Source: Shigella phage A2
Sequence record: OP197928
Length of the DNA: 64,000 nt
Strand: one strand, 5' to 3'
Both the position numbers and the translations under genes were made by a program. Below are positions 40,486-62,847 of this stretch, piece by piece. A model generated the notes under the pieces. That model saw only the letters and a program-made list of their open reading frames with translations. It was not told the DNA's origin and did no database searches. The first letter of the stretch is position 1; every line of letters begins with the position of its first letter.

Positions 40486-40956
40486 TTAATCATGTGTCCA
40501 CACCCCATCGGTATTTGACCAAAGTCGCTGATTATCTGATCCTCGCCACAGCTTTTTGGTCGGAAGATTTTTCTCATACTTCCCATCAATAATAACATCA
40601 ACATATTTAAGCATTTCTAGTTGTTTAATATCTTCAAACTTATATCCTGTCCACAACCAAATGCTTTTATTGGGATAAAGATTTTTAATAGTTTGAACCA
40701 CAGAGTGAATCACGTCTCTGTTATCAGGATAAAGAGGGTCACCTCCGGTTATAGTTAATCCTTCTATATAATCATTATTCAAACATTCAATTAATTGTTC
40801 TAGTGTTTCACCAGTGAATGGAATACCATTTCTAGCATTCCATGTTGATTTATTATAACACCCTTCGCATTTATGCAAACAACCTGTAACGAAAAGAACG
40901 ACCCTGCAGCCAGGGCCATTCACAAAATCGCAAGGATAAAATCTATCATAATTCAT
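40486..40956 (-). CDS. nrdG: anaerobic ribonucleotide reductase activating protein NrdG (radical SAM), 156 aa
   Basis: Cys cluster CRVVLFVTGCLHKCEGC; 156 aa; directly downstream of nrdD. Confidence 0.85.
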   Translation of the reverse strand: MNYDRFYPCDFVNGPGCRVVLFVTGCLHKCEGCYNKSTWNARNGIPFTGETLEQLIECLNNDYIEGLTITGGDPLYPDNRDVIHSVVQTIKNLYPNKSIWLWTGYKFEDIKQLEMLKYVDVIIDGKYEKNLPTKKLWRGSDNQRLWSNTDGVWTHD

Positions 40957-42770
40957 TGGTGTTTAACCCTATGCATGATTTCTTTATTTTTACCGAGATT
41001 AAATCCGCGTTCGTTCGGATTTCCCAAATAGCCGCATGTTCTTCTTATTGTGTTCATCTTTTTAGGATCAGTTTCTCCACAAATAGAACAAACAAATCCG
41101 TTTTCAGTAGGAGTCATTTCATGAGTACTTCCGCATGTAAAACATTTATCTACTGGCATATTAACACCAAAATAATCTAAATGTTGTGCAGCATAATCCC
41201 ACACGGCCTCAAGACCCTTTAAATTGTTTTTCATATCTGGAAGTTCAACATAAGAAATGTGACCGCCTGTTGCAATGAAATGATATGGCGCTTCACGAGA
41301 AACCTTTTCAAACGGAGTAATATTTTCTTCTACTGAAACATGGAAACTATTAGTGTACCAGCCTTTATCAGTAACATCCTTTACACTTCCATATTTTTCA
41401 GTATCAAGTTTACAGAAGCGATAACAAAGGTTTTCAGCAGGAGTCGAATATAAACTAAAAGCAAAACCGGTTCTTTCAGTCCACTGTTTAAGATGAGCAT
41501 TCATTTTAGTTAAAATTTCCTGTCCAATATCACGACCGACAAGAATATTCAATTCATGAATACCAATGTATCCTAAAGACACTGAACTTCTGCCATTTTT
41601 AAATAACTCAATTATATCGTCATCAGGTTTAAGACGAACCCCGAATGCACCTTCTTGGTAAAGAATAGGAGCAACAGTCGCTTTAACTCCTTTTAAGGAA
41701 CTAATTCTACACATCAATGCTTCAAAACACAAATCCATTCGTTCATTGAACAATTCGGCAAATTTCTGTTCATTGAACTGTGTTCCAATATAAGAATCTA
41801 ATGCAATACGAGGAAGATTCAATGTTACAACGCCAAGATTATTACGTCCATCAAGAATTTCATTACCAGTCGAATCTTTCCATACGCTCAAGAAACTGCG
41901 GCAACCCATTGGAGAAACAGGAATAGATGAACCTGTGATAGCTTTATTGTTCTTAGCTGAAATAATATCAGGATACATTCTTTTGCTTGCGCACTCTAGA
42001 GCAAGCTGTTTAATATCATAGTTCGGATCGTCTTTATAAAGATTAACACCTTCTTCAACGAACATAACAAGCTTAGGGAAAATAGGAGTTATCCCATCAC
42101 GACCTAGACCTTTAATACGATTTTTCAGAATTGCTTTCTGAATCATTCGTTCAGTCCAGTCAGTTCCTGTACCAAATGTAATTGTTACAAAAGGTGTTTG
42201 TCCGTTTGAACTAAAGAGAGTATTTACTTCATATTCATAAGCTTGGAATGCATCGTATACGTCTTTTTCTGTTTTAGATTGGGCATAATTCAACGCATCA
42301 GCGATTTGCCATTTTTCTGCATCCTCAATATGTTTTGCATAGGTGCGTTTAACGTAAGGAGAAAGTACTTTATCTACATTAGCAAAAGTCGTTCCGCCGT
42401 ACTGATGCGAAGCAACCTGTGCAGTAATTTGTGCCATAATTGCAGTCGCAACGCCAATTGATTTAGGAGTTTCAATCTGCGCATTACCAAGCTTAAATCC
42501 GTTCTCAAGCATTCCTTTTAAATCTACTAAACAACAATTAGTAAATGGAAGAGCAGGGGAATAATCAATATCATGGAAATGAATAATTCCGCTTTCATGC
42601 GCTTTCATAATAAAAGACGGGACCATATTTTTGGCAATGTGTTTAGACACAATACCAGCCATAAGGTCCCGTTGAGTTGGAAAAACACGAGAATCTTTAT
42701 TAGCATTCTCGTTTAAAAGGTCTTTATTAGTTTTATGAATCAATCCTTCAATTTCTTTTTCAATTGTCAT
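40953..42770 (-). CDS. nrdD: anaerobic ribonucleoside-triphosphate reductase NrdD, 605 aa, uninterrupted (no intron)
   Basis: C-terminal glycyl-radical motif RRTCGYLG and Zn ribbon CFTCGS...CSICG; single continuous ORF. Confidence 0.9.
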   Translation of the reverse strand: MTIEKEIEGLIHKTNKDLLNENANKDSRVFPTQRDLMAGIVSKHIAKNMVPSFIMKAHESGIIHFHDIDYSPALPFTNCCLVDLKGMLENGFKLGNAQIETPKSIGVATAIMAQITAQVASHQYGGTTFANVDKVLSPYVKRTYAKHIEDAEKWQIADALNYAQSKTEKDVYDAFQAYEYEVNTLFSSNGQTPFVTITFGTGTDWTERMIQKAILKNRIKGLGRDGITPIFPKLVMFVEEGVNLYKDDPNYDIKQLALECASKRMYPDIISAKNNKAITGSSIPVSPMGCRSFLSVWKDSTGNEILDGRNNLGVVTLNLPRIALDSYIGTQFNEQKFAELFNERMDLCFEALMCRISSLKGVKATVAPILYQEGAFGVRLKPDDDIIELFKNGRSSVSLGYIGIHELNILVGRDIGQEILTKMNAHLKQWTERTGFAFSLYSTPAENLCYRFCKLDTEKYGSVKDVTDKGWYTNSFHVSVEENITPFEKVSREAPYHFIATGGHISYVELPDMKNNLKGLEAVWDYAAQHLDYFGVNMPVDKCFTCGSTHEMTPTENGFVCSICGETDPKKMNTIRRTCGYLGNPNERGFNLGKNKEIMHRVKHQ

Positions 42771-60184: not shown

Positions 60185-60450
60185 TAGTATTTTTCCTCTG
60201 GTTGGAACACTGCACGACAAGCCCACATACTGGCTTCTTTGAGTTTCGTTTTAGCAATAGTTAACTGATCGAGGCTTTCAGCATAATTCTTCGCGAGTTC
60301 ATCGTCTTCACAGCTATCAAATGCTTCCCAAAATTCATCGTATAAAGCATCAAAGATAAGTCCTAAACGAACTTCAGCGTCTTTAATAGCATTTACTTTA
60401 CCGATTTTTTCGTCGGTATGTGGCTTATAACCTTTAATATCTTCAATCAT
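60184..60450 (-). CDS. hypothetical acidic protein (vs-region), about 88 aa
   Basis: ATG 60448-60450 with GAGGAAG SD. Confidence 0.45.
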
Positions 60451-60664
60451 ATTTGACTTCCTCGCCAGTACATAAATCGTATTCAACTAAACGAATAGGT
60501 TCATGAATGCCATATCCTTGAACAGAAATTTCTGTCGTAGGATAAATTCCATCAATATCACCCATATTCCAGGCTTCATTAAATTGCTGTTCGCCTGAAT
60601 TACTAAACCACTCGGCGAAAGCATTTAGCACATCTTTAGAACCTTCAATAATTATCTTTGCCAT
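60443..60664 (-). CDS. hypothetical protein (vs-region), 73 aa
   Basis: TAATG overlap with GrcA-like gene. Confidence 0.45.
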   Translation of the reverse strand: MAKIIIEGSKDVLNAFAEWFSNSGEQQFNEAWNMGDIDGIYPTTEISVQGYGIHEPIRLVEYDLCTGEEVKYD

Positions 60665-61026
60665 TACAAACTCTCAGTAAAGGTACGAGCGATAACGTCG
60701 CGCTGCTGTTCCGGAGTCAGAGAGTTAAAGCGAACTGCATAACCAGATACACGGATGGTCAGCTGCGGATATTTTTCCGGATGCTTAACTGCATCTTCCA
60801 GAGTTTCACGACGCAGAACGTTAACGTTCAGGTGTTGACCACCTTCAATTTTAACTGTAGGCTGTGGCTCAATTTCAATTTCACGAGCATGCAAACCGTA
60901 GAAAATTTCTGGGTCTACAAAAGAGTCCTCTTTAAAGGTTTTAGAGACAATAATTCGTGCTTGAATACCATCTTCAAAATAAATAGTACCTTTATGTGTG
61001 CCTTCAAGAATTTGATATGCTTTCAT
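60664..61026 (-). CDS. autonomous glycyl-radical cofactor (GrcA/YfiD-like; T4 Y06I-type), 120 aa
   Basis: C-terminal glycyl radical motif [27 protein letters not shown]; C-terminal half matches E. coli GrcA as recalled. Confidence 0.8.
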
Positions 61027-61033
61027 ATAAACC

Positions 61034-61363
61034 TCAATTAGAAAATAAATTTATCCAAGATTGTTCTTTAATTAAAAATGGCTCAGAATCATATGCCATT
61101 AAACTTTGGGTGATTAGTCCTTTAAAAGGTCCATCAATAAATTCCATGGTAAAATATGGAATTTTATTCATTAACTGTGCGTTAGGAGCAGTGCACAACA
61201 CTCTGCATCCTTTGAATACGCCTTTTTGTAATTTGTATTGCTTGGGATAAAATTCGCTTAAAATGTTGTTATTTGCCAAAATTTCAAAATGATTCACCAA
61301 TTTATTTTTAATAGTTTTTGGCGAAAAATAAAGATATTCGAAAAGCTGAGTGTCTGTCATCAT
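61034..61363 (-). CDS. hypothetical protein, about 109 aa
   Basis: ATGA overlap with upstream gene. Confidence 0.4.
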
Positions 61364-61899
61364 TGCATTCCGATTACGAAAAACTGTGGACGAGTAATAC
61401 CACCAATGCAACATTTACTATTACAGCAGTAGTGTACAGTGTCAATATGGACGCTATAAATCTTATCCATATCAGGAGATTTGACAGGCTCATCAATTAT
61501 ATACAAAATTCGCGAAAGCGATAAACCTCTGAACTTGCTTCCTTTATTACCAATAAAACTGCGCACAGAATCAGTAAATAAACGAAAACGTATATCATCA
61601 TTAGAATAACGCGAAAATTCCTTTTTAATGTTATTTGCAGAAATTTTAGCGTAAGCTGAAGTATTAGAAAGAACAATAACTGTTCCGCCATCATACAACC
61701 AATTAGCAGCAAAGTTAGTCACAGCAATTGATTTACCGGATTGACGTCCACCATCTATACGAAGTGTGCAGTACTGTTTAAGTAATTCTTCAAATGGCGG
61801 GATATATTCGTTTTTACAAATTTCTTCTACTCTAGCGTCAGAATGGTGTGTAAAAGCATTCATCAGGGATAGATAAGGACCAGTTAAAAATGTTCTCAT
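61360..61899 (-). CDS. hypothetical protein with P-loop-like motif, 179 aa
   Basis: ATG 61897-61899; Walker-A-like GGRQSGKS. Confidence 0.45.
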   Translation of the reverse strand: MRTFLTGPYLSLMNAFTHHSDARVEEICKNEYIPPFEELLKQYCTLRIDGGRQSGKSIAVTNFAANWLYDGGTVIVLSNTSAYAKISANNIKKEFSRYSNDDIRFRLFTDSVRSFIGNKGSKFRGLSLSRILYIIDEPVKSPDMDKIYSVHIDTVHYCCNSKCCIGGITRPQFFVIGMQ

Positions 61900-62039: not shown

Positions 62040-62513
62040 TTATTTGAACGATTTAACGTACTGAATAGAACCCTTACTATTCACAAAGGCAATTTTACCA
62101 TTTTTATTATACATGGTAGCAGTACGCTGATAACCATAGGTTTGTTTACCAGATTGATAACCAACTAATGCAAAATTATCTTCACCCATTTTATTCTGTT
62201 TAGCGCGAATGCGTTCATGACCATGTGCCATAAGAACCTTAGCATCACCAGTTGCAATGGATCGACGAGTTTTTTCATCTTCAACTGCATTAACAAAGTC
62301 GTCAAATGAATCAAATTTAGCATGAGATTTATTATACAGTTTTCCATCTACTGCATAATTATATCCTTGTACATCCATCTCAACTTCTGTACCATCATCC
62401 AATACAGCAGTGATTTTTTGACCTTTTTTAAATTTCAAAAGATCAGTAAAAGATTCAGCAATAATTTGAGAATTAATAGCTGCTTCAGTAATAAATTCTT
62501 GATATGTTTTCAT
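62040..62513 (-). CDS. putative head internal protein with capsid targeting sequence, 157 aa
   Basis: N-terminus MKTYQEFITE (CTS consensus); AAGGAAA SD. Confidence 0.6.
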   Translation of the reverse strand: MKTYQEFITEAAINSQIIAESFTDLLKFKKGQKITAVLDDGTEVEMDVQGYNYAVDGKLYNKSHAKFDSFDDFVNAVEDEKTRRSIATGDAKVLMAHGHERIRAKQNKMGEDNFALVGYQSGKQTYGYQRTATMYNKNGKIAFVNSKGSIQYVKSFK

Positions 62514-62529: not shown

Positions 62530-62847
62530 TTATTCTTTAGGGAAGTTTTTAGAATATGCATCATAAAGCTTATTTCCAATACGGCGGAAAACTCTAGCCG
62601 CAAAACGATTTTCTGGGTTTTTAATCATGATTTGCATCATATAAGTACCCGCGTCAGAAAGAGCTTCTTCATAGTACCCGTTAATTTCTTTAAGAGTCCT
62701 ACGTTTACCGCCAGGACCATCAACAGTGATTTTCCATTTACCTGTAGAAGTGCGACTTGGCGGCTCAACTTGTTCAATCCAGATATAACCGCCTTCTACA
62801 CGTTGTCCTGCGGCAGATTCTGCAATAAATTCTTTATACGTTTTCAT
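62530..62847 (-). CDS. putative head internal protein with capsid targeting sequence, 105 aa
   Basis: N-terminus MKTYKEFIAE (CTS consensus). Confidence 0.6.
   Translation of the reverse strand: MKTYKEFIAESAAGQRVEGGYIWIEQVEPPSRTSTGKWKITVDGPGGKRRTLKEINGYYEEALSDAGTYMMQIMIKNPENRFAARVFRRIGNKLYDAYSKNFPKE

Follow-up and report, generated by a model that had tools for sequence, protein, structure and literature searches.

A T4-Type vs.6 Gene With a Probable Escherichia coli grcA Segment in Its Glycyl-Radical Domain

How does a gene of a lytic phage come to encode a protein that ends in exactly the same residues as a protein of its host, and how recently did this happen? The question arises from a small open reading frame in Shigella phage A2 (sequence record OP197928), of which a stretch of 64,000 nucleotides was analyzed (hereafter the window). 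An earlier note had read its product as a spare part of the GrcA (YfiD) type for pyruvate formate-lyase and had taken the host-like C-terminus as a sign of recent acquisition. The explanation that best joins the evidence, and that we hold to be highly probable, is that the gene is vs.6 of the T4 type, that it encodes a pyruvate formate-lyase spare part, that part of it is a patch from E. coli grcA, and that a separate event of the same kind occurred in Klebsiella phages. The gene and its biochemistry are already known; the one aspect that may be new is repeated host-to-phage exchange of the patch.

The vs.6 gene and its product

The window is a segment of a T4-type phage genome, and regB, denV, and the T4 lysozyme gene e are recognizable around the region. 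The gene and its immediate surroundings are as follows.

60664..61026, minus strand: vs.6 (Y06I) coding sequence, 120 aa, ATG start; predicted phage-encoded autonomous glycyl-radical cofactor (GrcA-like spare part)
61032..61035, minus strand: GAGG, ribosome-binding site of vs.6 predicted from consensus only, 5 nt before the ATG
61034..61414: vs.7 open reading frame, upstream neighbor
60443..60664: vs.5-like open reading frame, downstream neighbor; its start ATG overlaps the vs.6 stop codon as TAATG

The translation of vs.6 ends exactly as quoted in the earlier note. Gene order is like that of T4 (regB, vs.3-vs.8, denV, e, with vs.5, vs.6, vs.7, and vs.8 consecutive). The top DNA match of the gene is in Shigella phage JK38 (99.7% nucleotide identity). 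Compared with T4 Vs.6 (NP_049730), the product is identical at 119 of 120 residues and the gene at ~98% of nucleotides; T4 has H73, the window protein has R73 like E. coli GrcA, and there are a few synonymous changes besides. T4 vs.6 (NC_000866 63557-63919, annotated as GrcA in RefSeq) lies in the same place between vs.7 and vs.5 and has the same apparently host-derived 3′ patch and phage-type tail. Based on the shared gene order, protein identity, and mosaic, the open reading frame is the Y06I/vs.6 ortholog of a T4-type phage (Tequatrovirus) and no new homolog. The earlier note had named T4 Y06I as a described homolog; it was right that this is known biology, but the open reading frame is an ortholog and not a separate relative, so T4 Y06I itself already has the host-identical C-terminus.

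The predicted GAGG site of vs.6 comes directly after the vs.7 stop codon. A scan for promoters and terminators around vs.6 gave signals no higher than background. Nearby in the window, two open reading frames on the minus strand (62040-62513 and 62530-62847) begin with a T4 internal-protein capsid-targeting leader (MKTYQEFI.../MKTYKEFI...), and the first of these matches DUF7412 (E=9.4e-96). They lie between vs.8 and denV, whereas T4 ipII/ipIII are between denV and e, so the internal-protein locus is arranged otherwise than in T4.

Relatives of vs.6 occur in ~1,500 phage records, T5-like and Aeromonas phages among them, and the GrcA-like gene is placed in differing contexts across phage families. 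It lies directly between nrdG and a thioredoxin gene in Aeromonas phage ZPAH1, and it adjoins a tRNA cluster in the T5-like phage DT57C. In Klebsiella phage CPRSB (Slopekvirus), the vs.6 homolog at 119-487 has two frame shifts and is annotated as a 66-aa fragment only; either the gene has decayed to a pseudogene or the sequence contains errors. Escherichia phage Av-05 (NC_025830, 121 kb), classed in Vequintavirinae/Avunavirus, carries a Mosigvirus-type vs.7-vs.6-vs.5 locus, and this record may be chimeric or misclassified.

Vs.6 consists of an N-terminal half and a C-terminal glycyl-radical domain in 120 aa without a catalytic barrel, which is the layout of a stand-alone small protein. Pfam Gly_radical (PF01228) covers residues 61-101 (E=2.8e-18). 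By BLASTP, residues 61-120 are identical to E. coli GrcA 68-127 at 60 of 60 positions; the claimed match of the C-terminal half to GrcA therefore holds and is more than a moderate similarity. The N-terminal part had been described as 55 residues that differ. Divergence is confirmed, but it extends over 60 residues, and these are still homologous to GrcA (14/40 identical, 35%, in an alignment of residues 22-60 with GrcA 28-67, E=5e-6). Residues 22-120 align with positions 28-127 of PDB 6OWR (E=8.6e-42), and residues 58-120 align with PflB 697-759 (E=5e-26). The predicted radical glycine lies within this domain.

60742..60744, minus strand: GGT codon of Gly95, predicted radical glycine in RVSGYAV; aligns with PflB Gly734

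The Gly95 column is invariant in 12 aligned phage and bacterial homologs. The glycyl-radical domain, the RVSGYAV motif, and the identity to GrcA and the PflB C-terminus bear out the assignment as a GrcA-like spare part. The GrcA equivalog model of NCBIfam (TIGR04365, “spare_glycyl”) matches residues 20-120 at model positions 25-126 with 153.3 bits (E=3.7e-45), which is below the 170-bit cut-off because the N-terminal half is divergent. The phage family phrog_1209 matches the full length (residues 1-120, E=1.2e-62) and also the N-terminal 60 aa alone (E=9.8e-16). The model for full-length pyruvate formate-lyase (TIGR01255) gives 88.9 bits against a cut-off of 994 and matches at model positions 680-744 only. 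That enzyme has a barrel of ~760 aa and active-site cysteines, and its name is a misnomer for a 120-aa fragment-like protein. Labels in the family are inconsistent and include “pyruvate formate-lyase,” “2-ketobutyrate formate-lyase,” “ribonucleotide reductase subunit,” “acetyltransferase-related,” “hypothetical,” and, for phrog_1209, “unknown function.” A uniform name is merited, and we suggest phage GrcA-type spare part.

Extent and composition of the host-like segment

The gene can be divided into three parts, all on the minus strand.

60849..61026, minus strand: 5′ half, from codon 1 through the first base of codon 60; AT-rich, probably the old phage-lineage part
60675..60848, minus strand: putative host-derived patch of ~174 nt, glycyl-radical domain; near-identical to the 3′ half of E. 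coli grcA
60664..60674, minus strand: phage-type tail GAG AGT TTG TAA, apparently unconverted; stop codon, TAATG overlap, and GAGAG Shine-Dalgarno-like motif for vs.5

Nucleotides 179-363 of the gene are identical to E. coli grcA at 181 of 185 positions (97.8%), far more than chance would give, and the patch stretch is matched at 95-99% in 5,426 of 5,426 complete E. coli genomes. Upstream of nucleotide 179, identity to grcA falls to ~45%. The nucleotide-level search for a recombination junction, which the earlier note had proposed, thus located a sharp one at gene nucleotides 178/179. The upstream edge of the patch is where host-phage homology ends, roughly where the disordered half of YfiD gives way to the structured one. 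Composition changes along with identity: the 5′ half has a GC content of 0.34 (GC3 0.20), like the window average of 0.346, compared with 0.49 (GC3 0.42) for the 3′ module, which equals the host gene.

Three of the four differences from grcA in the patch region fall in the last 10 nt, where the phage has GAG AGT TTG and the host has GAA AGC CTG. At the position of the vs.6 tail, hosts read GAAAGCCTGTAAGG. This extreme 3′ tail is phage-type and common to distant phage genera, and all nine phage genomes inspected have the TAATG stop/start overlap preceded by GAGAG or GAGG. The downstream limit of the patch, ~10 nt before the stop codon, was probably set by the need of the phage for the ribosome-binding site and start codon of vs.5. 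The 5′ half is likewise homologous across phage genera (59-88% nucleotide identity among T4-like genera). Because distant genera share the tail and have homologous 5′ halves, the patch would lie inside an older phage gene. These data support a mosaic structure for vs.6, in which a segment of E. coli grcA appears to have written over half of the gene.

A megablast comparison of the whole 64-kb window with the 5,426 complete E. coli genomes detected no E. coli-like DNA other than the vs.6 patch, which matched grcA at 97.4% and, more weakly, pflB at 80.7%. The higher identity to grcA points to that gene as the donor and rules out pflB. A solitary host-like stretch of this kind could also come from host reads joined into a phage contig, since host DNA is present in phage lysates. 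The same in-frame mosaic, however, is found in the T4 reference and in ~640 independently sequenced phage records, and these show lineage-specific private substitutions and the phage-type tail. At both junctions the translation stays in frame, and the TAATG overlap with vs.5 is kept. Recurrence in independent genomes refutes misassembly or contamination, and we regard the probability of such an artefact as vanishingly small.

Direction, age, and recurrence of the transfer

Phage modules were compared with a panel of 161 bacterial grcA sequences over the first 158 nt of the module, and donor support was evaluated by a bootstrapped nearest-neighbor test with 1000 replicates. Differences to E. 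coli-type sequences in these 158 nt were as follows.

This window: 1
T4: 1
Five Mosigvirus-type records: 0-4
Tequatrovirus EcNP1: 7

The E. coli-type phage tracts have at least 10 differences from every non-Escherichia genus sampled, with bootstrap support of 998-1000/1000 (1000/1000 for the window). Over 183 positions, bacterial modules differ from E. coli at 2 sites in Escherichia sp., 13 in Citrobacter, and 29 in Salmonella. In terms of dS, the module of the window is 0.095 from E. coli, with most of this in the tail, compared with 0.36 for Citrobacter and 1.02 for Salmonella. As a side observation on bacterial records, PLSDB contains entries from K. pneumoniae, E. coli, and Proteus that are labeled plasmids but have the size of chromosomes, 4-5.4 Mb (CP125156.1, NZ_OL790696.1, and others); one such entry served to assign the grcA locus L102 (below) to K. 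pneumoniae.

An identical C-terminus could also arise without recent transfer, by extreme purifying selection to fit PflB/PflA and possibly convergent codon usage. At the protein level the module is very strongly conserved in all phages, and an alignment of 12 phage and bacterial sequences has 43 columns without variation. In Cronobacter phage leE, all 60 aa are those of E. coli GrcA although the DNA differs at 29 synonymous sites (dS 1.52), so selection can keep a host-like protein where there is no near-identity of the DNA. Selection on the protein, however, cannot fix synonymous sites, and the window has one difference in 158 nt to E. coli, while the same or nearly the same peptide elsewhere differs at 13 (Citrobacter), 29 (leE), and 29 (Salmonella) of 183 sites. 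The jump in GC3 from 0.20 to 0.42 also falls at the junction. Selection without transfer is effectively refuted by the synonymous-site identity and is very improbable. The leE sequence also shows that protein identity alone is not diagnostic of recent transfer, which is a caution for methods that rely on amino acid identity to the host. The earlier claim of recent acquisition, which relied on protein identity, stands on nucleotide evidence and for the 3′ half.

Near-identity by itself gives no direction, and E. coli and K. pneumoniae could in principle have taken the 3′ half of grcA from T4-like phages. Several observations speak against this. The tract has host composition inside a phage genome that otherwise has 35% GC. 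Distances of bacterial modules from E. coli grow with taxonomic distance (from Escherichia sp. through Citrobacter to Salmonella), and the patch is present in every one of the E. coli genomes. The phage tail and 5′ half are absent from all bacterial loci examined. Of the private substitutions in the E. coli-type tract of the phages, 9/10 are GC to AT, the bias that host DNA should show as it decays inside an AT-rich phage genome. We give transfer from phage to host very little credence. Host-like GC and greater closeness to E. coli than to other genera suggest instead that a host segment overwrote half of the phage gene, and the comparisons show an apparent host-to-phage transfer after Escherichia split from neighboring genera.

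“Recent” is relative in this case, as the patch is common to ~640 phage records. The module is at least 95% identical in 643 phage records, T4 included, and the 5′ half in 478 only. Escherichia phage EcNP1 (Tequatrovirus, gene at 301-663) has eight tract changes compared with E. coli grcA. They run in several directions (A>G, T>C, T>A, and others), unlike the GC-to-AT decay of the other phages, and suggest either an exchange of greater age or another donor within Escherichia. The changes in EcNP1 are unexplained by a single E. coli donor followed by AT-biased decay, and they count against the main account.

Several comparisons speak for more than one exchange event, the module and 5′-half counts just given among them. 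In their 5′ halves, Tequatrovirus and Mosigvirus are 18-23 nt apart (dS ~0.49), but within the tract only 1-2 synonymous sites differ (Fisher p=1e-4 to 6e-4). The 3′ junction is further upstream in Mosigvirus HX01 (module nucleotide ~162) than in four other Mosigvirus-type records, T4, and the window (module nucleotide ~174).

In Jiaodaviruses, a module with GC content of 0.56 lies beside a 5′ half with 0.36. Phages JY1 and KPNUMC01 of this genus are identical at 155 of 158 sites to K. pneumoniae grcA (locus L102, which matches a K. pneumoniae record at 100% over 981 nt), and an IMG/VR contig (L206) is identical at 157 of 158. The 5′ half of this contig's gene lacks one nucleotide. Eighty phage records match the K. 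pneumoniae module at 95-99%, and the sampled ones are Klebsiella phages; sampled coliphage matches are at 85-88%. Within Jiaodavirus, modules have 7-15 differences compared with 1-7 in the 5′ halves. In a Raoultella phage, seven of eight tract differences are shared with Raoultella-like grcA. Klebsiella T4-like phages thus appear to carry an independent second patch, 98-99% identical to that of the putative donor, K. pneumoniae grcA.

Other phages set bounds on the process. No comparable patch was found in coliphages of Krischvirus, Slopekvirus, and the T5 type, so overwriting is not general. For the modules of Slopekvirus, Pseudotevenvirus, Karamvirus, Krischvirus, T5-like, and Aeromonas phages, the 161-sequence panel held no recent donor; the nearest panel sequence is 18-37 of 158 sites away, and donors may be unsampled. 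No phage record exceeded 95% identity to the Salmonella module. Three phage records are at 90-95% to this module and could be a third donor-recipient pair.

As deduced from these alignments, a stretch of ~174 nt encoding the structured domain of an old phage-lineage GrcA homolog would have been replaced by the matching segment of E. coli grcA. The likely route is gene conversion, by homologous patch recombination with host DNA fragments, and template switching is an alternative. Flanking homology outside the patch is at most 8 nt at the 5′ edge, which is unusually short for classical homologous recombination and could mean template switching. The tract would halt upstream where host-phage homology ends and downstream before the sequence that the phage needs for the vs.5 start. 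In Klebsiella T4-like phages, an event of the same kind would have taken place separately, and there the donor would have been grcA of K. pneumoniae.

More broadly, we are inclined to believe that vs.6 is a recombination hotspot where lytic T-even-type phages repeatedly overwrite the structured half with grcA of their current host genus. Tequatrovirus and Mosigvirus would then have drawn on E. coli, and Jiaodavirus on K. pneumoniae and possibly Raoultella or K. oxytoca. In that case the patch of ~160-175 nt would be a functional re-fit to host PflB/PflA and would record which hosts the phage lineage has recently used. Nature would thereby also supply direct evidence of host chromosomal DNA recombining into T-even genomes despite degradation of host DNA. 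No description of host-phage conversion at vs.6 was found in the searchable literature, and it may have been published elsewhere.

Function and comparison with known systems

According to the account in PMC8683613, YfiD and T4 Y06I are the only two validated spare parts for pyruvate formate-lyase (PFL) and are activated by PFL-AE, and T4 Y06I restores the oxygen-cleaved enzyme in vitro (Wagner et al., 2001, as cited there). Residues 61-127 of YfiD have the fold of PflB 693-759, and residues 1-60 are disordered and aid binding and radical installation (PMC8683613). From the identity of 119/120 aa we infer that Vs.6 of the window probably shares the spare-part biochemistry of T4 Y06I. Vs.6 would be a 14-kDa autonomous glycyl-radical cofactor, and its structured C-terminal 60 aa would imitate the segment that PflB loses, or that is dislodged from it, on cleavage by oxygen at the radical glycine. 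Host activase PflA would put the radical on Gly95, and radical-bearing Vs.6 would dock to cleaved PflB and bring back production of acetyl-CoA and formate. The benefit may be that the phage brings its own spare part once host gene expression is shut off.

The window contains both nrdD (40953-42770) and nrdG (40486-40956), ~18 kb from vs.6, as the earlier note had stated. Their joint presence makes its reading of vs.6 with nrdD/nrdG as an adaptation to anaerobic growth plausible, and the spare part could sustain fermentative energy metabolism in the micro-oxic gut beside these two genes. A search for an in vivo role of vs.6 found none in the searchable literature. To our knowledge, no vs.6 phenotype is known.

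Vs.6 might instead be a spare part or decoy for another glycyl-radical enzyme, such as phage NrdD, or titrate host PflA. This idea draws on nrdD and nrdG in the same window and on the ZPAH1 homolog, which directly adjoins nrdG and a thioredoxin gene. Spare parts for further glycyl-radical enzymes are also a subject of speculation in PMC8683613, and one early paper conjectured that vs.6 acts in nucleotide metabolism. However, the module is of the GrcA/PflB type, as its match to PflB 697-759 indicates, and it was apparently copied from host grcA and not nrdD. It has no significant similarity to NrdD of the window (E=6.3), so Vs.6 cannot replace the lost fragment of NrdD by the logic of duplicating the missing piece. 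T4 Y06I restored PFL in vitro, by the same account of Wagner et al. (2001). A target other than PflB is therefore unlikely, and a role as PFL spare part is the reading we retain.

E. coli GrcA/YfiD (P68066; NMR structure 6OWR) has the same two-part layout as Vs.6 and the same C-terminal 60 aa including the radical glycine. The N-terminal half of Vs.6 is 7 residues shorter than that of GrcA, and vs.6 lies in a phage gene string with overlapping stop and start codons, whereas grcA is at the host ung-grcA locus. The C-terminal glycyl-radical domain of PflB (697-759; 1H16/2PFL) is a homologous module with the shared motif, and it is the piece that the spare part replaces.

In itself the window case is ordinary: the gene is familiar from T4, its function in vitro is established there, and hundreds of sequenced phages have it. 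Its value is as a clean natural case of probable host-to-phage DNA exchange that is confined to one domain and appears to recur in Klebsiella phages, and it could be used for studying how, and how often, host DNA enters lytic T-even phages. T-even phages degrade host DNA and modify their own. A parallel comes from cyanophages, where Zeidner in 2005 and Sullivan in 2006 reportedly described psbA mosaics in which the phage copy swaps segments with the host copy. As in vs.6, these are host metabolic genes carried by phages with host-like patches. Unlike the psbA mosaics, the exchange in vs.6 involves one structural domain only and is the sole host-like DNA in 64 kb, and its recipient is a strictly lytic T-even phage.
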